Virus record (IMG/VR): IMGVR_UViG_2778261083_000005
DNA: 36,199 nt
Strand: one strand, 5' to 3'
Source of the DNA: a virus
Taxonomy: Duplodnaviria > Heunggongvirae > Uroviricota > Caudoviricetes
In this document: positions 935 to 36,199 of the stretch, piece after piece
Numbering within the stretch: the first letter of the stretch is position 1
How the letters are laid out: the number at the start of each line of letters is the position of its first letter
Translations under genes and position numbers: made by a program
Notes under the pieces: generated by a model
Seen by the model: only the letters and a program-made list of their open reading frames with translations
What the model was told of the DNA's origin: nothing
Databases searched by the model: none

Positions 935-2620
935 GTGAATATAAACGTCGCCGAATTGTTAAATGGGAATTACATTCTGTTATTATTTGTGGTCCTCGCG
1001 CTTGGGCTATGTCTCGGAAAGTTACGACTTGGTTCGATCCAACTGGGTAATTCCATTGGCGTTTTAGTCGTATCGCTGTTATTAGGCCAACAACATTTCA
1101 GCATTAACACCGATGCGCTTAATCTTGGCTTTATGCTGTTTATTTTCTGCGTCGGGGTCGAAGCCGGACCGAACTTTTTTTCCATTTTTTTTCGCGATGG
1201 GAAAAATTACCTAATGTTAGCACTGGTGATGGTTGGCAGTGCGCTGGTGATCGCCTTAGGGTTAGGTAAGCTGTTTGGCTGGGATATTGGCCTGACGGCC
1301 GGTATGTTAGCAGGCTCTATGACGTCGACACCGGTTCTGGTCGGTGCTGGCGATACACTGCGTCATTTCGGCATGGAAAGCAGGCAGCTCTCACTGGCAC
1401 TGGATAATCTGAGCCTCGGGTATGCCTTAACCTATTTAATCGGTCTGGTGAGTTTGATTGTTGGTGCGCGTTACTTGCCGAAATTGCAGCATCAGGACTT
1501 ACAGACCAGCGCCCAGCAAATCGCCCGCGAACGTGGCCTGGACACTGATGCCAACCGTAAGGTTTATTTACCGGTGATCCGCGCCTATCGCGTCGGCCCG
1601 GAGCTGGTGGCCTGGACCGACGGCAAAAATCTGCGTGAACTGGGTATTTATCGACAAACCGGCTGCTACATTGAACGTATTCGACGTAACGGGATTCTGG
1701 CAAATCCAGACGGTGATGCCGTGCTACAAATGGGCGATGAAATAGCGTTGGTAGGCTATCCCGACGCCCATGCCCGACTCGATCCCAGCTTCCGTAACGG
1801 TAAAGAAGTTTTCGATCGTGACCTTCTCGACATGCGTATCGTCACTGAAGAAGTGGTCGTTAAAAACCATAACGCTGTAGGTAAACGTCTCGCACAACTG
1901 AAGTTGACCGATCACGGTTGCTTCCTTAACCGCGTCATTCGTAGCCAGATTGAGATGCCGATAGATGACAACGTCGTGCTTAACAAAGGTGACGTTTTAC
2001 AAGTCAGCGGTGATGCCCGTCGCGTAAAAACCATCGCCGATCGCATCGGCTTTATCTCGATTCACAGCCAGGTCACTGACCTGCTGGCATTTTGCGCCTT
2101 CTTTGTTATTGGGCTGATGATCGGGATGATCACCTTCCAGTTCAGCACATTCAGTTTCGGCATGGGGAACGCTGCCGGGTTGTTATTCGCCGGAATTATG
2201 CTGGGCTTTATGCGTGCTAACCACCCGACCTTCGGTTACATTCCGCAAGGTGCATTAAGCATGGTGAAAGAGTTCGGCTTGATGGTGTTTATGGCAGGCG
2301 TTGGTCTGAGCGCCGGTAGCGGTATTAATAACGGCCTGGGCGCGATTGGCGGTCAGATGTTGATTGCCGGATTAATTGTCAGTCTTGTGCCCGTGGTTAT
2401 CTGTTTCTTGTTCGGTGCTTATGTATTGCGAATGAACCGCGCACTGTTGTTCGGCGCAATGATGGGCGCACGCACCTGCGCGCCGGCAATGGAGATCATC
2501 AGTGATACAGCTCGCAGTAACATCCCTGCGCTGGGCTATGCGGGCACCTACGCAATCGCCAACGTCCTGCTGACGCTGGCAGGGACAATCATCGTCATGG
2601 TATGGCCAGGATTAGGATAA
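935..2620 (+). CDS. ybjL: Putative AAE-family transporter YbjL
   Basis: 561-aa ORF beginning [20 protein letters not shown] (GTG start at 935); two membrane domains flanking a soluble central region; recognised as E. coli YbjL. Confidence 0.9.
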
Positions 2621-4747: not shown

Positions 4748-7700
4748 GCGTCGTATCCCCCCTGATCGCTGTAGTTACTCCTGGCCTTTGCCTTCAGTCT
4801 GCGTTCACGTTCATCAAGCTGGCGTGCCACCTCCCGCGCAATATCCTGCGCACTTTGTCCTGGCTGCGTCTGGATGATGATCTGCGTCGGTGCCTCAATC
4901 CGGTGAACGGGCGGCACAGCAGCTGCGCGACTCACCATCGCTTCGCCGCCTTTCGCGGGAAGTGCCAAAGGGTGCAACGGTGGAAGCTCTGCTGGCGCGG
5001 CAGCAACACCCATCATTCCGGCAACAACCGCAGCCAGTGCAGCTGTATTTCTCCGGCTGGTCACGTTTGCCGGACCGTTAACAATTTCAGGCCCGTTTTC
5101 ACCGACAATGCCGAACTGCCCGCGCGGGATATACCCGCCGCTGTCATACATCCCCGCAAAGCCATATCCCCATGACGGAAAACCACCCGATGGCATCATC
5201 ACTTTACCGTCTGCATTCACCGTCGCAGGTTGCTGACGCGTCACGCTTTCCGGCAGTTTCGCTTTTGCAGCCTCTTTACTGACAATGCCGAGTTTCTCCA
5301 GCAACCAGGAAACGCCGGATTTCAGCGAGTCCAGTGGATGCATGACCATATTCAGCCCTTCCGCCAGTGCCTCCCCGAATCGTCGCCCCATTGCCGCTGC
5401 ACTCTGCAGTTCGGCAGAGGTCGACTTAACAGGCATCAGCAGGTCAGTAAACCAGCCCCACAGCGCCTGCACTTTGTCTCCAATCCACTGGAACACAGGC
5501 TTAAGTGGTTCGAATGCGGCACTGATGGGACCAGCCGCTGCTTTGAATCCTTCCACCACGCCACCGAGAAATGCGGTGATGGGTTGCCAGTATTTCCAGA
5601 CAACCAGCGCCACGCCTGCCAGTGTAGTAACCACAAGACCTATCGGACTGAGCAGAGCACCTAACAGACCAGATATGGCATACAGGGCCACGCGCAGCAT
5701 CGCCAGCGGACCGGATGCCAGCACACGAAGCACCGCGCCTGTGGCAGTCAGCCCGCCGCGTAGTGCTGCCAGAGGATTCATAAACATCACAGCAACAGCA
5801 CGTAAACCGGATAATCCAGACCGCAATAGTGCAACCGGCGCACCTGCTACAGTTTTCAGGACATTCCCCGTCAGTGATGCCGTGCGACGCAAAGACGACA
5901 ACGGCGCAGTAAGTAAACCCGCTGCGTTGCCCGATGAAGCAAGCCCGCGTCGCAGCAGTGCCAGTGGTGCGCCAGCCAGCCAGGACAACGCGCTGCTGGT
6001 TCGAGTTACTGCTGCCGTAACGGAAGGTAACGTTTTGATACCCAGCACAGAGAATCCCAGACGGATCACTGCCAGCGGCCCCAGCACTGCAGCCAGCGCC
6101 ACCGCTAAGGTGCCGAGGCCTACGGTAACCGCAGCCACAACAGCCGCTACTTTCATCAGTGTGCCTGTCAGTTCCGGGTTAGCTTCCACCCAGCGGCGCG
6201 ACGCTCCCGTGACGCTTTTCACCATGTACAGAATATCCATCAGCGGCTGGCGCAGCGTTTCGCCCAGGCTGCTGAAGGTGTTCTGCGCTCCGGTTTTGAC
6301 CAGCAACCACTGCGCAGAAAGTGAGTCCTTGTTAATGTCGGATTCTTTCTGCATGGAGCCGAGCGCATCATTGCCCGCTGTCAGCTTTAACTGGCGCTGC
6401 AGTTCCGGCAGGTTGTTTGCCAGTTTCGCTGCGTCATCGCCAAACTCTTTACCAAACAACATGGTCATGGCAGACAGGCGCTTATCCTGCGGCAGAGCAT
6501 TCACCTTCTCCAGCACGCGCTGGATGGTTCCCATCGCATCCTTCGTCATCTGCTTTTCAATCAATTCAGGATTGAGTTTCAGCAGATTCATCCCTTCAAA
6601 GAAGCTCTTGCTTTGCATGGTGGCAATGGACAATTCACGCACCATCGCGTTTGCTGCACTGGCTGCAACCTCCGGCGCAGCGCCCAGTGTCAGGAAGGTG
6701 GAACCCAGCGCCGCCGCTTTACGGTAATCCAAACGATCAGCCACACCGCCCAGGCGTTGCATGACATCAATGATGTCTGCCCCTTTCGACATGGCGTTAT
6801 CATCCAGATAGTTCAGCGCATCACCGAGCTGTTCAATATTGCGGGTAGGGATTTTGTAGAGCTGGGCGATTTTCCCCAGACTTTCTGACAGTTCATCCGC
6901 TGGCAGCTCAAAGGCTGTTGCCGCCTTTGCCGCCGTGCTGGCGAAGGCCAGCAGGTCACGTTTCTGGTCTTCCCAGCTGTCGTCAGGGTTTGCGACGTTC
7001 ATGCGCGCCCCACCTTCAACCAGTGCGGCGAAGTCCACAGCACCGTTTTCCATCGGCAACTGTTCGCTGGCAGCCTTGATGGCATCCTGCATTTCATAAA
7101 AACGCGCAGTGCGGTTGCCATTATCGTCACGCAGACCATTGACCTGCTTTGCCACACCTTTCATGGCATCTTCCATGCTGGTATAGCTTTTTACTGCCGC
7201 CATCACTGGTGCGCCCATTGCCAGCCCTGCAGCCGTGGTGGTGGCTCCGGCACTTGCAATACGATCACGCACCTCCAGCGAACGGGCATAACTGGCACGC
7301 GCTGCATTCATCCTGCGCTGAGCTTCTCCCAGTCGCTTCAGCCGCGCCTCCTGTTTCGAAAGTTCCTGGTTATAACGTGATGTTTCACGGGCTAAACGAG
7401 CGGTTGCTCCCGCATCGTCTTTCGCAGAAATTCCCGCCCGGTACAGCTCTGCACGCACAAGCGCCGTTTGCTTCTGCAAATATTTTTGTTGTTCTTCCAG
7501 GCGTTGGACTGCCAGCGTTTGCCGACCTAAAGCCACAAGGTGCCGTTGTGATGGTTGTTCCATCGCCTCCAGCTCAGAGCTAAGCAAATTAGCCTTCTGT
7601 CTGGCATAGTTCAGCCTGTCGCCTAACTTCTTGTTATCGGCCTGCAGCTTGCGAAATTTTTCCAGGCTGTTACCCGCCTGATTGAGTTGCTTTAATGCGT

Positions 7701-10574: not shown

Positions 10575-11447
10575 ATGGAACAGAGAAAACTATATGCTTA
10601 CTTAAATTTAAACAATCCAATTGTTGCCTGGGAGGTTGCAATAGGAAGAATTGAATCAATCTGTTATAAAAGTGAGTTTGGAGTATCTATTTGGTTCTAC
10701 AATCTAGTAAGAAAATACTTATCAGATAATCACAATGAAAAATTACAAAATGAGTTAGCTCTTGAAAAGGTACGCTCAGACAATTTCAGAGATAAAGTTT
10801 CCCGCCTAACCGGAATATATCTATTCAAAACAAAAGAAATGGCTGAAATAGCAATTGACCGTTGGGGTTTAAATCAAAACTATAAAAACACTATTGCAGA
10901 AATTGATTTTCATGGTTTGAACTTTACAGAGGTGGACTCAGAGTGGATCACTGATTATCTCGGCTCTCCGCTTGAGCAAAATGCGCCCTGGATGCACAAC
11001 TATTGGTCTGGAGTAACTCGCGGGGAAAATCCATTAACCGAAGTTTTGGCCAGTGGCATTGGATATATCAACGATAAAAAAATCAGAAGCATGGCTATCA
11101 AAAAACTATATGAAAAATGGGCTACTTCATCTTTGTTATTTAATGCAGCGATTGCCGGTTTTTCTACTGGAGAAATGGATCAGATATGTCGTGTCAAACC
11201 AGCGATACTACGTGAAGATGATGGGACCCTATCTGGAGAAATTTTTATTGACATGAAAGAATTCAGTCAAAATCAGACAAAAATAGTAGCCGCTTTAAAG
11301 AAAATGTATGACAACGGATATGAGCCTCCTATTGTTGTACCGAATGACCAAAATGCTGCCTTTGCATTACCGGACCTTAAAGATATGTTTTTTAGTACTA
11401 AAAACGAAGTAACTAAAAACCTGTTCAACTTATTACACGCTAGTTAA
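10575..11447 (+). CDS. Hypothetical protein, 290 aa, AT-rich cargo gene at the Z/fun hotspot position
   Basis: Clean ORF with AGGA SD 8 nt upstream of ATG at 10575; opposite strand to the flanking tail operon; markedly AT-rich by eye; followed by a hairpin; no family recognised. Confidence 0.7.
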   Translation: MEQRKLYAYLNLNNPIVAWEVAIGRIESICYKSEFGVSIWFYNLVRKYLSDNHNEKLQNELALEKVRSDNFRDKVSRLTGIYLFKTKEMAEIAIDRWGLNQNYKNTIAEIDFHGLNFTEVDSEWITDYLGSPLEQNAPWMHNYWSGVTRGENPLTEVLASGIGYINDKKIRSMAIKKLYEKWATSSLLFNAAIAGFSTGEMDQICRVKPAILREDDGTLSGEIFIDMKEFSQNQTKIVAALKKMYDNGYEPPIVVPNDQNAAFALPDLKDMFFSTKNEVTKNLFNLLHAS

Positions 11448-25103: not shown

Positions 25104-25802
25104 TTATTTGTTTCTTCTTTGTTCACGCCTTGTCTTGGCTTCGATAAGGCGTTGAGGTTCAGTGTAAAGCCGTTCTAAAAAAAGATAGGTAAAATCTTCA
25201 AGATCCTCAGCAGCAGCTTTATCCAAAATACCTTCATGCGCTCCATCATTTCCGTCATCTTTAACGCATTCAGCTAGTTCCCTTAAAGCTTCAGGCAGTA
25301 GATGATTATCAAATAACCACTCCATTCTCAACCCTAGGCTTCTCCTTATTTTTTGCGCAGGCCCTTGCTCCCCATCAGGAAGAAGTCCTTTTGTGGCATA
25401 ATCAAGGCAAAGCCTAAACATGGTTGCTGCTGCATTATAACAACCTATAGCCAAACATTTCGCCCCTTCCTCATATGCACTATTGATATGCTCAGGTAAG
25501 AACTCTGGTGGCTCCTCTACTGCTAAGTCTGCCGGTGATATAGGCCTAACAACCTCTGCAACTTCCTTTAAGCCGAATATTCCACTTTCCCAATTATAGC
25601 TATCTAAAGTTTTATTTTTCGTTAAAGGTCTGCAAAGAAACATTGTCGTTTTATGACACTCTCGGCAAACACAATAGACCTCGTACTCGTATGTTTTACC
25701 CCCGCCCAATGCATTGTAAACCCTAGTGCAATTCAGCCCATTAACATCAAACGCTATTTTTTGTGATCCACATCGTGGACAGTCATCCACTAACATAACC
25801 AT
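25104..25802 (-). CDS. Zinc-ribbon protein with C-terminal DUF4145-like (predicted HEPN-type) domain; candidate abortive-infection/defence protein
   Basis: 232 aa; strong GGGAGGAG SD upstream of ATG at 25800-25802; N-terminal CPRC...CVCRECH zinc ribbon; C-terminal ...ALRELAECVKDDGNDGAHEG... resembling the R...GN.gAH motif of DUF4145; convergent with Q across an 8-bp gap. Confidence 0.7.
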   Translation of the reverse strand: MVMLVDDCPRCGSQKIAFDVNGLNCTRVYNALGGGKTYEYEVYCVCRECHKTTMFLCRPLTKNKTLDSYNWESGIFGLKEVAEVVRPISPADLAVEEPPEFLPEHINSAYEEGAKCLAIGCYNAAATMFRLCLDYATKGLLPDGEQGPAQKIRRSLGLRMEWLFDNHLLPEALRELAECVKDDGNDGAHEGILDKAAAEDLEDFTYLFLERLYTEPQRLIEAKTRREQRRNK

Positions 25803-25912
25803 GTCAATTACTCCTCCCTATGAAAAAAATGAGTTGAAAAATTGAATATTCACGACTTAAAAAGCTAGCCTATTTAACACCATAATTTCATTAATTCAAC
25901 CATGAGCGCGCG

Positions 25913-25931
25913 CTCGTATCCCCGCCACGCC
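25913..25931 (-). other. Candidate cos site (cohesive-end sequence)
   Basis: Minus-strand GGCGTGGCGGGGATACGAG matches the GGCG(A/T)GGCGGGGA core of P2/186 cohesive ends as I recall them (13 of 19 to 186); adjacent 12-bp palindrome gagcgcgcgctc at 25904-25915. Confidence 0.45.
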
Positions 25932-26104
25932 TGCCCGCTTTATGTAGCGGTTTTCATGCAGGCGCATGATCTACGCAAAATCCCACCAGTTCTGGCGTGC
26001 CTTAGCAAAAACGATCCGCAAACGATCATGCGATCTCATGCGGCATAGTCATGCACTTACGGGGGAAGTGAAATCCCGTAACCGAATGACCGCTTGAAAA
26101 ACAA

Positions 26105-26151
26105 AACTCTCGTTTTTATAAAGCACAAAGTCCGCTTTGAGCGAAGCGGAC
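26105..26151 (-). terminator. Candidate intrinsic terminator downstream of the KAP NTPase gene
   Basis: Inverted repeat gtccgctt(26130-26137)/aagcggac(26144-26151); on the minus strand it is followed by TTTGTGCTTTATAAAAAC. Confidence 0.4.
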
Positions 26152-26216
26152 GTTAATAATTTTACTGACTATCCCTAGTACTTCTAATAATATTGCCTAT
26201 GTTAATCAACAAAAAG

Positions 26217-28109
26217 TTAATCAGTTCCCTCAGTAAAGAATTTGATTGCGCTAGTTAGTACATAGTCAATAAAAAACTTTACGTGAAAAACCTGAAAGGA
26301 GTTATTGGCTGCGTTTTGAGTGAAATCTACAGCTATCTCTTTTAGGTTAATCAACCAGTTGTATTCTTCGGTCAGTCTGGTTCTAGCATCCCCATCAGAA
26401 TAACGATTCCGCAAGCTAAATGCCAGTTTCCTCATGAGGACTGGGTCAAGTTTCCTATAGCTTTCAATGAAAACTTCAGGAGGAACCAAGTGTAAAAAAG
26501 GCACGTTATGAAGATTTAACTGCCTATTATTAGAATGACTCAATTCAGATACGAACGATAAGTTTCCCCTTTGCAACTCATCGCTGAACTGCAACGCAAA
26601 TTCCGGAATTGATTCATCAAACCGTTTCTTCTTCGCTATCTCAATATGCTCAATAATGAGTTTGAATTCATCGCTATCCCTGTCAAGAAAACCAAAGCCA
26701 CGCCATGCCCTTAATTCGTTATAATGCGTTTGCGCATATTCCTTATGTATATCTTCAGCTCTAAGTCTATTATAATAATTATTTATATTCTGTTTTGTCT
26801 CATTTATGAGATCATGAACATCATCTGTTGTTAGACCTTCTTTCGCCATGTCCAGCAAAATACTCGCGGTCATCAGGAGTTCACCTAAGGAAGTGATCTT
26901 ACCTGAAAATAGATTATCCTTGGCAATGGCGTACTGCTCATTAAGCATAGTTTCATTAAGTTCTCGATAGTTCCACAAATACTCCCATGCTTGGGCATCG
27001 GTGCTTCTAAAAAATCGCGTAATATCCAACTGAGCGAGAAGTTCACTCGTTACCTTTCCATCACAGATTAGCTCCCTCCAGTACGCACCATCCAGTAACT
27101 TCTCGGTTAATACAGGAGATGAATATTTCTCGGCGATCATGTCATACTTAGTTTTGGTACGCTCTTTACCTAAAAACATACCATAATTAACATTGCTGAT
27201 TGAATCGAAATCCTCGTAGTTAAGGTTCCCTCCCCGGTACTCTATCGAGAAAATTAACAACTGCTGGAAAAATACCCTCATAAAATCGTCGTTGCTGACA
27301 TATTTATTTCCCAAAAGGGAAATGATGCGTTGTACATCAAGAAAGAACTGCCTCAAGTGTCTTAGATTATTATATTTCGCCGACACATAGATGTCTTCTA
27401 TGGCCTGCATATCTTCTTTAAATATATTAGCAACGTGTAAACTGCTAATTACGCCCAAAAAAACATTACAAGCACTATGTAAATCTGACGTTACTTCAAA
27501 TGTTTTACCAACAAGCTTTTCTTTTGTTCTCATATATTCGCTGCTAGATTTCTCATCATCATTATTTATTCGCTTTTCTCTATTGATTATTTCTTCTTCA
27601 TTGGCAACCAAGATCGCTTTGTATCCGTTTACTTCTACAAAGTGGTTTATATATCCAAATAAAATTGGTAAATCTATACCAGCTCTCTCGATATCATCAA
27701 AGACCAGCACAAAACCATCTGGTTTTCTACTAAAATCGTTAAGATTAATGGTGGGAACATTGGTATTGACATCAACGTCAGATTTATTATCGCCATTGAG
27801 ATCGATCTTGAAAGTAGCCTTAAGCGTATTTTTTAGTACATTTGCACCAAAGATAAGGGCTTTGTTTGATAGGACAGGATGAAGTTGACGATAGAACTCA
27901 TCTTCAATCTGCTTAATAGAGTTGACGCCATACAAACTCACTTTTAGAAATTTAAACTCTGAATTCTTCTGCTTATATTCTTCAAGAACTTGTTCAATGA
28001 ACCAAGTTTTACCTGATCCCCAAGCACCTTTAAGCATAATGGCGTATTGAGGTTCAGTTGTAAGGCTAAGGTAATATTCTATATAGTCTTTGATGTACGT
28101 ATTGTTCAT
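26217..28109 (-). CDS. KAP-family P-loop NTPase (PifA-like); candidate phage-exclusion protein
   Basis: ATG at 28107-28109 preferred (ORF-track start at 28160 is TTG); Walker A GAWGSGKT and Walker B-like VLVFDDIER in the N-terminal third; long helical C-terminal region; AT-rich; between tum/DinI module and cos. Confidence 0.75.
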   Translation of the reverse strand: MNNTYIKDYIEYYLSLTTEPQYAIMLKGAWGSGKTWFIEQVLEEYKQKNSEFKFLKVSLYGVNSIKQIEDEFYRQLHPVLSNKALIFGANVLKNTLKATFKIDLNGDNKSDVDVNTNVPTINLNDFSRKPDGFVLVFDDIERAGIDLPILFGYINHFVEVNGYKAILVANEEEIINREKRINNDDEKSSSEYMRTKEKLVGKTFEVTSDLHSACNVFLGVISSLHVANIFKEDMQAIEDIYVSAKYNNLRHLRQFFLDVQRIISLLGNKYVSNDDFMRVFFQQLLIFSIEYRGGNLNYEDFDSISNVNYGMFLGKERTKTKYDMIAEKYSSPVLTEKLLDGAYWRELICDGKVTSELLAQLDITRFFRSTDAQAWEYLWNYRELNETMLNEQYAIAKDNLFSGKITSLGELLMTASILLDMAKEGLTTDDVHDLINETKQNINNYYNRLRAEDIHKEYAQTHYNELRAWRGFGFLDRDSDEFKLIIEHIEIAKKKRFDESIPEFALQFSDELQRGNLSFVSELSHSNNRQLNLHNVPFLHLVPPEVFIESYRKLDPVLMRKLAFSLRNRYSDGDARTRLTEEYNWLINLKEIAVDFTQNAANNSFQVFHVKFFIDYVLTSAIKFFTEGTD

Positions 28110-28423
28110 TTTTAGTCCATTTTGATAAAATACATAAACATAGATGGTAAGTAGAGCCAAAGGCCAACTATGGAAAATTCAATCGGTAGTGTACATTGTA
28201 AGGTTATTATTAGTAAATTTTATAGAAATGCCCATAATCTTACAAAATTCAGATTATCCGTTGCGAATTAGTCTGCCATTCGTTAATTAACAAAAGTTAG
28301 CAGAAGAAACGTTTGCATCTTGCACAAAGCAGACGATCATTTATCAAAATGACCTTACACCTTATTTCACTCGTTGCCCAAACTAGCCCCCATCAGAATG
28401 AATCCTCCTGGGGGCAACGTTTC

Positions 28424-33315: not shown

Positions 33316-33825
33316 TCACAGCAAACCGAATGAAGCACCGAGGCCAGTCACGGTATCAACTGCACTCGCCATCGCAGGATTAGCCTGTAAACGGGCCTGC
33401 AATGAAACAGCAGCCAGCGCCATCAGTCGTGTTACAGAGTTAATGCTGCTGATAGCATCACGACGACCGGCACTAGTTTTTACATCACCAGATACCGCAC
33501 CTGCTGCAACACGTCCGATCTCTGCAGTTGCGCTCATGACGTAATGCGGCAGTTTCTCTTTTGCAACCTCATTAATCGGTACACATGGCAGGCAGTGAAT
33601 CTGTGCCAGAAAACCATCTACCAGCGTTGAATCTTCAGTCAGATCGGTAAGCAGCCAGATTTCTGGTGCGGTTAATAAATGAGGCTGAGCTGGGTTCAGC
33701 TTGTTCCGCAGAATCTGCACATTCATGCCTGCACGTTCTGCCAGTTGCACCAGATTGTGGCGCAGTGCAAATGCACGACAGGCTTCATCAAAATGTGGAT
33801 GTTTGGAAACTTGGTAATCAAACAT
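33316..33825 (-). CDS. cII: CII-like transcriptional activator (186 CII family)
   Basis: 169 aa from ATG at 33823-33825; [19 protein letters not shown]...[25 protein letters not shown] closely matches 186 CII as recalled. Confidence 0.8.
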
Positions 33826-33857
33826 GGTCAATGCCTCTGATGTATTTCAGAATCGAA

Positions 33858-34079
33858 CTAATTAAGGTTTAGATTGCATTCTGAAAGCGCATCAACGGTC
33901 ATGGCTGCTATGTTGATCATCACTTTTTCGCGTTTTTTATCTTTGCGCAAACGGTGACGGATAAGGCGTCCATCAGCCAACATGTCATTGATGGTATCGA
34001 TGGACAGTCCTGTCAGCTCGCTATAGCGTTCAATAGTCACATGAGGCGTGGTAAGAGTGATTGAAATGTTAGGTCTCAT
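33858..34079 (-). CDS. apl: Apl/Cox-like excisionase and transcriptional repressor
   Basis: 73 aa with HTH ([24 protein letters not shown]); first gene of the lytic operon, divergent from cI. Confidence 0.65.
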
Positions 34080-34204
34080 GATGCAACATTCCTCGTTTAA
34101 TGATGATTAATCAGGACGAATACGGATCGTTTGTATTTTGTGAACACCATAAACATACGATCGCACTATGAAATCGTCAAGATAAAAGTTCACTTGGAGT
34201 GACC
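34080..34204. promoter_or_regulatory. Immunity switch region (lytic and lysogenic promoters plus operators) between apl and cI
   Basis: 125-bp intergenic region between divergent apl and cI; contains inverted repeats (aatac-N8-gtatt; tgtgaac ... gttcac) as candidate operators. Confidence 0.4.
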
Positions 34205-34774
34205 ATGAATTTGGAGAAAGGCGGACGAGGCGCTATAGAGCGCATGGTAGAAGCTTATGGATTCAAAACTCGACAGGCGTTGTGCGATCATTTAGGAATC
34301 TCTAAAAGTACACTCGCTACACGCTACATGCGTGACTCATTCCCAGCAGAATGGGTAATCCAGTGCGCCCTTGAAACGGGCACCTCGCTTAATTGGCTCA
34401 CAACTGGACATGGTTCAAAGCAAACTTCAGGTAATACAAATACGATGGAAGTTGCTAAATATGTATTATCTGATGGTGCCTTGCGTGAAGACGGTTTTTA
34501 TATTTTTGATAAGGGATTTCTACCCTCTACGTTTAAAAAACCTTTTGTCATCACAGATAACAATTCTGAATTTATTTGTGATAAAGAATTTGATGATATA
34601 CGTGATGGTAAATGGGTAATAAGTATTGATGGCGAAATAACAATCCGCGACATTACTCGTTTACCCGGTGGAAGAATCTTCGTTGAAGGTGGAAACAGAT
34701 CCTTCGAGTGCAAGATAGAAGATGTTGAAATAATTGGAAAAATTATAAGTTTAACAATTAAGTACGTTAGGTAA
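34205..34774 (+). CDS. cI: CI-like immunity repressor (186 CI family)
   Basis: 189 aa from ATG at 34205 with GGAG SD; ...EAYGF...CALETGTSLNWLTTGHG... aligns by eye with 186 CI. Confidence 0.8.
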   Translation: MNLEKGGRGAIERMVEAYGFKTRQALCDHLGISKSTLATRYMRDSFPAEWVIQCALETGTSLNWLTTGHGSKQTSGNTNTMEVAKYVLSDGALREDGFYIFDKGFLPSTFKKPFVITDNNSEFICDKEFDDIRDGKWVISIDGEITIRDITRLPGGRIFVEGGNRSFECKIEDVEIIGKIISLTIKYVR

Positions 34775-34789
34775 TACCGGGAGGAAACT

Positions 34790-34981
34790 ATGCTTGGTAA
34801 GGTATTTTTTGTGGTTTTATCATGCTCTTTGTTATTAAACCCACTAACTACCTATGCTAAAAATTATCCTTGTTCTGGGAAAAAGGGAGGTGTCTCTCAC
34901 TGTACCTCCGATGGAAAGTTCGTTTGCAATGATGGAACTATTAGTAAATCAAAAAAAATCTGTACTAAAAACTCGCGATAA
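34790..34981 (+). CDS. Small secreted Cys-rich, Lys-rich peptide (63 aa), probable moron
   Basis: GGAGG SD 7 nt upstream of ATG; N-terminal signal peptide ([23 protein letters not shown]) and a mature part with four Cys; co-oriented with cI and int. Confidence 0.55.
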
Positions 34982-35167
34982 TTTTTGCTTTTATATCTGC
35001 GCCTAATATAACAATGAGCCGCAGGCTAACCGCAAAAGTCACATACTCACATAGCAAAAAATAGCCAACTTCATTATGGCTTCAGTGAGATGTATGGTCG
35101 CAAGATTTCATACATTGACACTGGTTATACATACAGTAAAAATGCTCTCTATTGGAGGGCATTTTTT

Positions 35168-36199
35168 ATGGCAGTACGAAAACTCACCACAGGAAAATGG
35201 CTTTGCGAATGTTACCCCGCCGGACGTAGTGGGCGTCGTGTGCGTAAACAATTCGCCACCAAAGGCGAAGCACTGGCTTTTGAGCGTCACACGATGGAAG
35301 AAACCGAAGCAAAGCCCTGGCTGGGCGAATCAGTAGATCGTCGAACCCTGAAAGACGTGGTTGAGCTATGGTTCAAACTACATGGTAAATCTCTGACTGC
35401 TGGGCAGCATGTCTATGACAAATTGCTGCTGATGGTTGACGCTCTGGGCAATCCCCTTGCAACCGATCTCACATCTAAAATGTTTGCCCATTATCGAGAT
35501 AAACGACTGACAGGTGAGATCTACTTCAGCGAGAAATGGAAGAAAGGGGCCAGCCCGGTCACCATTAACCTGGAGCAAAGCTATCTAAGTAGTGTTTTTA
35601 GCGAACTATCCCGCCTGGGCGAATGGTCGTATCCAAACCCACTGGAGAACATGCGAAAATTCACCATCGCAGAAAAAGAGATGGCATGGCTTACCCATGA
35701 GCAGATTGTTGAACTGCTGGATGATTGCAAACGTCAGGACCCAATTCTGGCACTGGTAGTCAAGATATGCTTAAGCACAGGCGCACGCTGGCGAGAAGCA
35801 ATAAACCTTACCCGCTCACAGGTGACCAAATACCGAATTACCTTTGTCAGAACGAAGGGGAAGAAAAACAGAAGCATCCCTATCAGTAAAGAGCTTTACG
35901 AAGAGATCATGGCGCTCGATGGGTTCAATTTCTTCACAGACTGCTATTTTCAATTTTTATCCGTGATGGAAAAAACGTCTATCGTGCTCCCTCGCGGTCA
36001 ACTGACACACGTTCTGCGCCATACGTTTGCGGCGCATTTTATGATGTCGGGTGGAAATATCCTTGCTTTGCAAAAAATCCTCGGACATCACGACATAAAA
36101 ATGACTATGCGTTACGCACATCTAGCACCGGATCACCTGGAAACTGCATTACGGTTTAATCCGCTGGCAACACTACCAACATCAATAGCAAGTTTTTGA
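35168..36199 (+). CDS. int: Tyrosine integrase (P2 Int family)
   Basis: 343 aa from ATG at 35168 with GGAGG SD; catalytic R...HxLRH...Y residues in the C-terminal domain (LTHVLRHTFAAH...MRYAHL); stop codon is the last three bases of the window. Confidence 0.9.
   Translation: MAVRKLTTGKWLCECYPAGRSGRRVRKQFATKGEALAFERHTMEETEAKPWLGESVDRRTLKDVVELWFKLHGKSLTAGQHVYDKLLLMVDALGNPLATDLTSKMFAHYRDKRLTGEIYFSEKWKKGASPVTINLEQSYLSSVFSELSRLGEWSYPNPLENMRKFTIAEKEMAWLTHEQIVELLDDCKRQDPILALVVKICLSTGARWREAINLTRSQVTKYRITFVRTKGKKNRSIPISKELYEEIMALDGFNFFTDCYFQFLSVMEKTSIVLPRGQLTHVLRHTFAAHFMMSGGNILALQKILGHHDIKMTMRYAHLAPDHLETALRFNPLATLPTSIASF

Follow-up and report, generated by a model that had tools for sequence, protein, structure and literature searches.

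What is a small, apparently exported peptide doing directly behind the repressor of a temperate phage? The question is raised by the IMG/VR virus record IMGVR_UViG_2778261083_000005, a stretch of 36,199 nucleotides that we call the window. The window contains a 186-like prophage of the Peduoviridae. Between the genes for its cI repressor and its tyrosine integrase (int) lies an open reading frame (ORF) of 63 codons, on the plus strand at 34790-34981. It proves to be a genuine YdcA-family gene. We hold with moderate confidence that it forms the second cistron of the lysogenic operon and that its small product works outside the cytoplasm as a binding or adaptor module.

The gene runs from an ATG at 34790 to a TAA at 34979-34981, boundaries that are drawn from the ORF list, the family models and the RefSeq annotation. 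A Shine-Dalgarno sequence, GGGAGG, can be read at 34779-34784 on the same strand, 5 nt upstream of the start codon. An earlier interpretation made from the letters of the window and their translations, hereafter the sequence-only reading, had described a 63-residue ORF with a strong ribosome-binding site at this place, and its coordinates prove exact. It had also described a signal peptide followed by a Lys-rich mature peptide of about 40 residues with four cysteines. These features are all in the sequence; left unmentioned was a fifth cysteine, C12, which lies inside the signal peptide.

The predicted Sec signal peptide comprises residues 1-23 (34790-34858). It carries a single lysine (K4), a hydrophobic core of residues 5-16 and a proline at position 18, and its Kyte-Doolittle hydrophobicity reaches a 9-residue maximum of 2.7. 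Judged from hydrophobicity and the -3/-1 rule, signal peptidase I would cut after A23, between TYA and K, with T, Y and A occupying positions -3 to -1. A small-residue -3/-1 site is found ahead of the conserved core in 78 of 79 species-level homologues. The mature peptide of 40 residues (34859-34978), recognised by its near-invariant core, its purifying selection and the confidence of its structural model, has a mass of 4265 Da, a pI of 9.6 and a charge of +6.8 at pH 7. It contains eight lysines, one arginine, two aspartates, one histidine and the four cysteines.

We considered a lipoprotein and rejected it: no lipobox of the form [LVI][ASTVI][GAS]C with a conserved cysteine is present. The sole candidate, C12 (VVLSC), lies 11 residues from the N-terminus and 8 past K4. 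Because it is too near the N-terminus and not conserved among homologues, and because the conserved processing site is of the A-x-A type before the core, a lipoprotein is excluded. A scan of 33800-36199 with Rfam returned zero RNA families, so that a non-coding RNA is unsupported as an alternative.

The product belongs to a family that is already catalogued. It reaches 116.1 bits with NF007463, an equivalog model of NCBIfam whose cut-off is 93 bits, and its residues 5-63 align with positions 1-58 of the 58-position profile. It also matches PHROG 6000, an entry without an assigned function, at E=4.6e-34. The Pfam model PF27300 ('YdcA') is precomputed on 57 of 64 database homologues; our local Pfam copy is without this model, and the only match that it gave, GULLO2-like_3rd at E=0.068, was judged to be due to chance. 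An identical protein exists in RefSeq as WP_001321204.1, and its loci are annotated either 'hypothetical protein' or 'YdcA family protein'. In UniRef the same sequence goes under the name 'Conjugal transfer protein', a designation that seems unsupported, as the plasmid homologues that we examined lay outside transfer regions. With curated family models and an identical RefSeq protein at hand, the gene is not a new kind of gene.

The family takes its name from YdcA of Escherichia coli K-12 (b1419), and is covered by PF27300, by NF007462, NF007463 and NF007464, and by PHROG 6000. Its members share with the window product a signal peptide, a length of 57-63 residues, four cysteines and the core PCSG(K/S)KGG(V/I)SHC...GKFVCNDG(T/S)IS.SKK.C. 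Among homologues C28, C38, C46 and C58 vary little or not at all, and K32, F44, G49, S52, S54 and K55 are invariant. The signal-peptide region diverges freely while retaining its n/h/c architecture; the core of the peptide is near-invariant. The K-12 protein is predicted to be periplasmic, with no assigned function, and its gene adjoins rydC/cybB (bioRxiv 10.1101/2024.02.12.579971), whereas the window gene is linked to cI. With NF007462, the equivalog model of the K-12 type, the window product reaches 68 bits, under the cut-off of 118. By these sequence criteria it is assigned to a paralogous, prophage-borne subgroup and not to the orthologues of K-12 YdcA. The family as a whole was still called poorly characterised in 2026 (PMC13541209).

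The gene is common in E. coli. Identical DNA occurs in 654 of 5426 complete genomes (about 1 in 8), including those of the laboratory strains B, BLR(DE3) and C and of ATCC 8739, and the exact protein is encoded on at least 1000 contigs. Close homologues number 64. Relatives are encoded by at least 535 viral contigs of IMG/VR; an exhaustive HMMER search of 1.84 billion proteins returned 458 cluster representatives at E<=1e-3, and a scan of GTDB with one genome per species gave 121 loci in alpha-, beta- and gamma-proteobacteria. The same gene is absent from P2, from 186 and from all deposited enterobacterial phage genomes: when the ORF region was compared by blastn with 50,697 phage records, only the int-proximal 90 nt matched. 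The claim of the sequence-only reading that this is not a core P2/186 gene is therefore borne out.

Within the family, the protein is held constant while its DNA changes. Over a core of 32 codons, the proportion of synonymous differences (pS) is 0.86-0.95, which is saturated, against a proportion of non-synonymous differences (pN) of 0.03-0.16. Compared with the sister prophage L009, the window has 18 synonymous and 2 non-synonymous differences in this core; compared with L007, the ratio of non-synonymous to synonymous substitution rates (dN/dS) is 0.025. The core of the peptide is under very strong purifying selection. The only disrupted copy in the sample is found in E. coli O19:H7 730V1, where an IS5-like element of the ISKpn26 family truncates the YdcA gene near its 3' end (L006:3092-4374).

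How is the gene expressed? The switch region of the prophage has the ordinary 186-like layout, with cII (PF06892) and an apl-like gene on the minus strand, and cI, the ORF and int on the plus strand. The repressor gene occupies 34205-34774 (Pfam Phage_CI_repr, 2.8e-33, and Phage_CI_C, 1.1e-28); the RefSeq ATG of the identical locus is equivalent to 34205. The integrase gene occupies 35168-36199 (Pfam Int_N, 2.8e-32, and Phage_integrase, 4.3e-22). The co-orientation of the ORF with cI and int, on which the sequence-only reading had relied, is thus as described. Only 15 nt separate the cI stop codon (34772-34774) from the ORF, and this short gap together with the Shine-Dalgarno sequence makes an operon arrangement. 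Our scan for promoters and terminators found no plus-strand promoter or terminator bracketing the ORF, and no plus-strand terminator between cI and int. On the minus strand, the consensus scan found a promoter-like TTGACG-17-TATGTT at 34152-34180 that faces the apl-like gene and is presumably the lytic promoter pR. In P2-like phages, pR and the lysogenic promoter pL face each other across the switch region (PMC7498355).

A spacer of 186 nt (34982-35167) separates the ORF from int. Within it, at 35115-35143 on the plus strand, TTGACA-17-AAAAAT resembles a promoter (10/12); the site ends 25 nt before int begins. From about 35108-35110 onward the DNA is homologous to int regions found in other P2-like prophages. 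As the site falls inside this shared int segment, int may have a promoter of its own in addition to read-through from cI.

The linkage of the ORF to cI is also seen across genomes. cI, the ORF and int occur together in 592 E. coli genomes, and in a sample of 40 rows spread across the E. coli matches, every match that contained cI included the ORF too. In about 500 other E. coli genomes the match is confined to the int-proximal part, which begins near 35108. The G+C content over the ORF is 33-34%, versus about 50% for the phage. A block of low G+C content (32-37%), at 34400-35100, spans both the ORF and the C-terminal half of cI; that it covers the C-terminal domain of the repressor suggests that the two travelled together.

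These observations bear on the proposal of the sequence-only reading that the gene is a moron. Its low G+C content, its absence from close relatives and the variable cargo slot beside it agree with that proposal; the position in the cI operon and the lack of a promoter or terminator of its own do not. The ORF behaves like a second cistron behind cI, and is better seen as a passenger in the operon of one lineage of immunity modules than as a free-standing moron.

Do other prophages carry such a gene at the same place? A search for homologues, which had been proposed along with the sequence-only reading, shows that the gene is no orphan. In E. coli, an allele of 61 residues and 70% identity lies directly 3' of a different cI, and in a Hafnia prophage an allele of 60 residues again directly follows cI; these diverged E. 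coli and Hafnia alleles have 63-70% identity. YdcA alleles also stand directly after cI in Yersinia, Buttiauxella and Pasteurellaceae. In the Haemophilus phages HP2 and S2, distantly related peduoviruses, an unannotated homologue of 60 codons has the same position and orientation. It starts on the cI stop codon (ATGA), and in HP2 a gene for an oligonucleotide/oligosaccharide-binding (OB) fold protein precedes int; in the window the ORF begins past the cI stop and only the spacer of 186 nt lies before int.

The stretch from YdcA to int is a variable cargo slot in 186-like prophages, and it is empty in the window. Elsewhere it holds a 443-residue nucleoside triphosphatase (NTPase) of the KAP family, matched by the PADLOC candidate model PDC-S20 at E=1e-171, or a 347-residue protein without family. 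One sister prophage, whose cI is a different one, lacks YdcA and carries a gene of 323 residues (with a sub-threshold DUF2207_C match). These cargo-slot stretches of sister prophages are found at L009:4198-5529, L007:3252-4583, L016:4247-5290 and L008:1502-2473. In HP2, the slot is occupied by orf1(S), an exported OB-fold protein matched by Pfam tRNA_anti-like. An exported OB-fold neighbour just downstream of YdcA is seen only in HP2 and in Moraxella caviae. A conserved two-gene module made of YdcA and its downstream gene was considered and rejected: HP2 orf1(S) is unrelated to the 232-residue protein that follows YdcA in Moraxella bovoculi. When the neighbours at 80 species-level loci were classified, only cI recurred across genera (7 loci).

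What does the peptide look like? The AlphaFold2 model, computed from an alignment of 45 sequences, predicts a short helix and a beta-hairpin, with a predicted local distance difference test (pLDDT) score of 91-93 at residues 31-50; the N-terminal residues 4-15 are modelled as a helix. Its best match in the Protein Data Bank (PDB) is the same by profile and by Foldseek: chain AN of entries 7MUC and 7MUD. This chain is Dis2 (Lpg0823), a subunit of the outer-membrane cap in the Dot/Icm type IVB secretion system of Legionella. When the whole alignment served as the profile, Dis2 was matched at E=1.8e-4; with the mature region alone, at E=0.059. Foldseek reports a probability of 0.97, with 39% identity across 38 columns; hhalign reports E=1.2e-4 and a probability of 55%. 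In a BLASTP comparison of the mature peptide with a Dis2-like protein, both lobes of the latter are aligned, at E=3e-5 and 2e-4. The Dis2-like protein, a database entry, also bears the precomputed PF27300 label.

Each lobe of Dis2 contains a YdcA-like motif, CC.K.GG.NYC..AGRLVCNNG.YS in one and CC...GGV......G.V.CNDGSIS..C in the other, and has disulfides that stabilise it. In Dis2 the YdcA domain seems to have been duplicated in tandem (PDB 7MUC chain AN; P0065, P0066). It has been described, together with its structure and contacts, as a Legionella-specific protein without structural relatives (PMC8486379, PMC12716638). The two proteins nevertheless differ, and their similarity is remote: Dis2 has two tandem lobes and five disulfides, and is part of a secretion machine, whereas the window peptide consists of one free domain and is far more basic. 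Around the ORF the genes (apl-like, cII, cI and int) are ordinary for a 186-like phage, and none of them is a secretion-system gene; the window product has neither the tandem lobes nor the place in a Dot/Icm outer-membrane cap that characterise a Dis2 subunit. Taken together, the sequence and profile comparisons support homology to Dis2 at the level of the domain only.

Further hints come from proteins in which the YdcA domain is joined to another. In larger proteins it always stands directly behind the signal peptide. It is fused to Endonuclease_NS in four proteins (L054, at 4989-5936, P0183, P0151 and P0185), to a staphylococcal nuclease (SNase) domain in P0107, and to a nuclease domain of the phospholipase D-like Nuc type (PLDc_2) in P0172. 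In P0104 its partner is a fragment of VasL, a type VI secretion protein, and the domain is thus also present in periplasmic accessory proteins of type VI secretion; in about a dozen loci it is combined with a PBCV_basic_adap motif, and some proteins have one or two further YdcA domains in tandem. That three unrelated nuclease folds share one N-terminal module argues for a role of the YdcA module in binding or localisation. Candidate targets of the fused module are the substrate of the nuclease, namely DNA, which fits the conserved lysines, or the cell envelope.

The genomic settings of the family are as varied as its fusions. Most members are chromosomal. Homologues also lie on plasmids of Acinetobacter and Rhizobium, among the structural genes of Moraxella phages, and beside a tail gene in a prophage of Kluyvera, where the sequence of the neighbouring ORF was judged by eye. 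On a Citrobacter plasmid, a YdcA-domain gene (L180:3926-4327) is part of a type VI secretion cluster: it comes after tssF-tssG-tssJ-tssE and before a gene for a GIY-YIG nuclease.

How would such a module act in the lysogen? If cI and the YdcA gene are co-transcribed, the peptide would be made in lysogens. Sec would export it, signal peptidase would cut behind Ala23, and oxidation in the periplasm would yield a two-disulfide mini-protein of about 4.3 kDa. By analogy, the free peptide most likely binds a conserved anionic ligand, such as DNA, lipopolysaccharide (LPS) or phospholipid head groups, or else a protein near the outer membrane. Binding would then alter an envelope property of the lysogen, perhaps the entry of phages or DNA, perhaps its tolerance of stress. 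We favour binding over catalysis because of the analogy with Dis2 and with the fusion proteins, and consider an action of the peptide as an enzyme or a toxin unlikely.

Several points weigh against this picture of an extracytoplasmic binding module made from a lysogenic operon. The lysogenic promoter pL was not located by the consensus scan. A peduovirus cI or int is nearby in only 12 of the 80 species-level loci, so a tie to phages is not intrinsic to the YdcA family. The fusions reveal the companions of the YdcA module, not the ligand of the free peptide. Legionella mutants deleted for dis2 show hardly any phenotype (PMC12716638). Finally, the sole published phenotypes concern the chromosomal paralogue of K-12 and W, and give no pointer to mechanism.

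A more specific proposal is that the cI-linked YdcA peptides form an unrecognised class of prophage envelope factors, which bind DNA or an outer-membrane-proximal component and either block the entry of foreign DNA and phages or remodel the envelope. They would be free versions of the module that is found on the Dot/Icm outer-membrane cap and that would target secreted nucleases, and they would be produced along with the repressor and act in the periplasm. We put this forward as a speculation that is unlikely.

The first of the rival explanations is superinfection exclusion or a block to DNA entry. Phages are known to encode exported superinfection-exclusion proteins, such as Sp of T4, Cor of phi80 and Llp of T5. 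Like them, the window product is small, phage-encoded and apparently targeted to the envelope, and its gene lies in an operon that is presumably expressed in the lysogen; as a cationic periplasmic peptide it could hinder the incoming phage DNA, the injection machinery or DNA uptake. Such a role in exclusion or in blocking DNA entry would agree with the position directly behind cI in several peduovirus lineages and with the candidate defence gene, the KAP NTPase, in the adjoining slot of sister prophages. The strong cationic charge and the three kinds of secreted-nuclease fusions are compatible with DNA binding, and relatives occur in phages or prophages of the naturally competent genera Haemophilus, Moraxella and Acinetobacter. 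However, the peptide has no sequence similarity to the known exclusion proteins and, unlike Cor and Llp, is not a lipoprotein. It matches no defence or exclusion model of PADLOC at E<=0.01, and nothing that we found points to a known exclusion protein. The mature peptide is moreover near-invariant across hosts that have very different phages, and most members of the family are chromosomal, which favours a ligand on the side of the host and a role of the housekeeping type. We therefore regard an exclusion function as doubtful.

In the second rival, the prophage gene is a lysogenic-conversion factor of host fitness that duplicates the role of the chromosomal YdcA. The extra dose would aid tolerance of acid, organic acids or the stationary phase. 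Deletion of the chromosomal ydcA in E. coli W causes sensitivity to 3-hydroxypropionate, and the gene is reported to be acid-induced (PMC7642389); it has a constitutive promoter of the RpoS type (PMC5493296) and is up-regulated as cultures near the formation of persisters (bioRxiv 10.1101/310961). The phage copy retains the same core motif. On the other hand, it falls in a different equivalog group, as its score of 68 bits with NF007462 attests, and the published phenotypes are single observations on a paralogue, without mechanism. This explanation seems to us unlikely.

Still less can be said for a secreted toxin, bacteriocin or antimicrobial peptide directed against competitors. The peptide is small, cationic and stabilised by cysteines, and to this extent superficially defensin-like, but it carries only a Sec signal, which would take it no farther than the periplasm, and no gene for immunity, export or processing is nearby. 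The family is widespread as a single chromosomal gene, and the homologous domain of Dis2 belongs to a structural subunit (PMC8486379). Nothing supports the toxin-like factor of the sequence-only reading, and we consider a toxin very improbable. A last rival denies the peptide any function of its own: the ORF would be accidental or in decay, or would be translated only to couple the expression of cI to that of int. The stretch is indeed short and AT-rich and is truncated by the IS5-like element in one genome, but the synonymous saturation of a near-invariant protein refutes the chance reading, curated models and hundreds of non-phage homologues speak against it as well, and we give this explanation almost no credence.

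Other features of the window lie far from the cI operon. On the minus strand at 25104-28160, between the portal-side genes and the replication gene, are two ORFs: one encodes a KAP-family NTPase of 647 residues, matched by the PADLOC candidate defence model PDC-S49 at E=2e-160, and the other a DUF4145 protein of 232 residues that PD-T7-4 matches weakly. They are probably defence cargo in a known variable region of P2. At 10575-11447, a plus-strand ORF of 290 residues runs opposite to its minus-strand neighbours of the late region and has no match in Pfam or PADLOC; it may be cargo at the variable position of the P2 Z/fun type. The ORF at 935-2620 (plus strand) encodes a permease of 561 residues with Asp-Al_Ex and TrkA_C domains. 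As this is a host gene, the window begins in chromosomal DNA; the insertion site of the prophage is close to ybjJ/rcdA, the same region as in E. coli C.

We return to the reading that we prefer, a YdcA-family binding or adaptor module encoded in the lysogenic operon. Several lineages of peduoviruses keep a near-invariant, predicted periplasmic mini-protein as the first gene past their repressor. The links to Dis2 and to the nuclease fusions provide hypotheses for the YdcA peptide, namely that it binds DNA or another polyanion, or that it anchors near the outer membrane. Should the cI-linked peptides indeed be envelope factors of prophages, their same position from the 186-like phages of E. coli to HP2 of Haemophilus would reflect a shared function in lysogeny.
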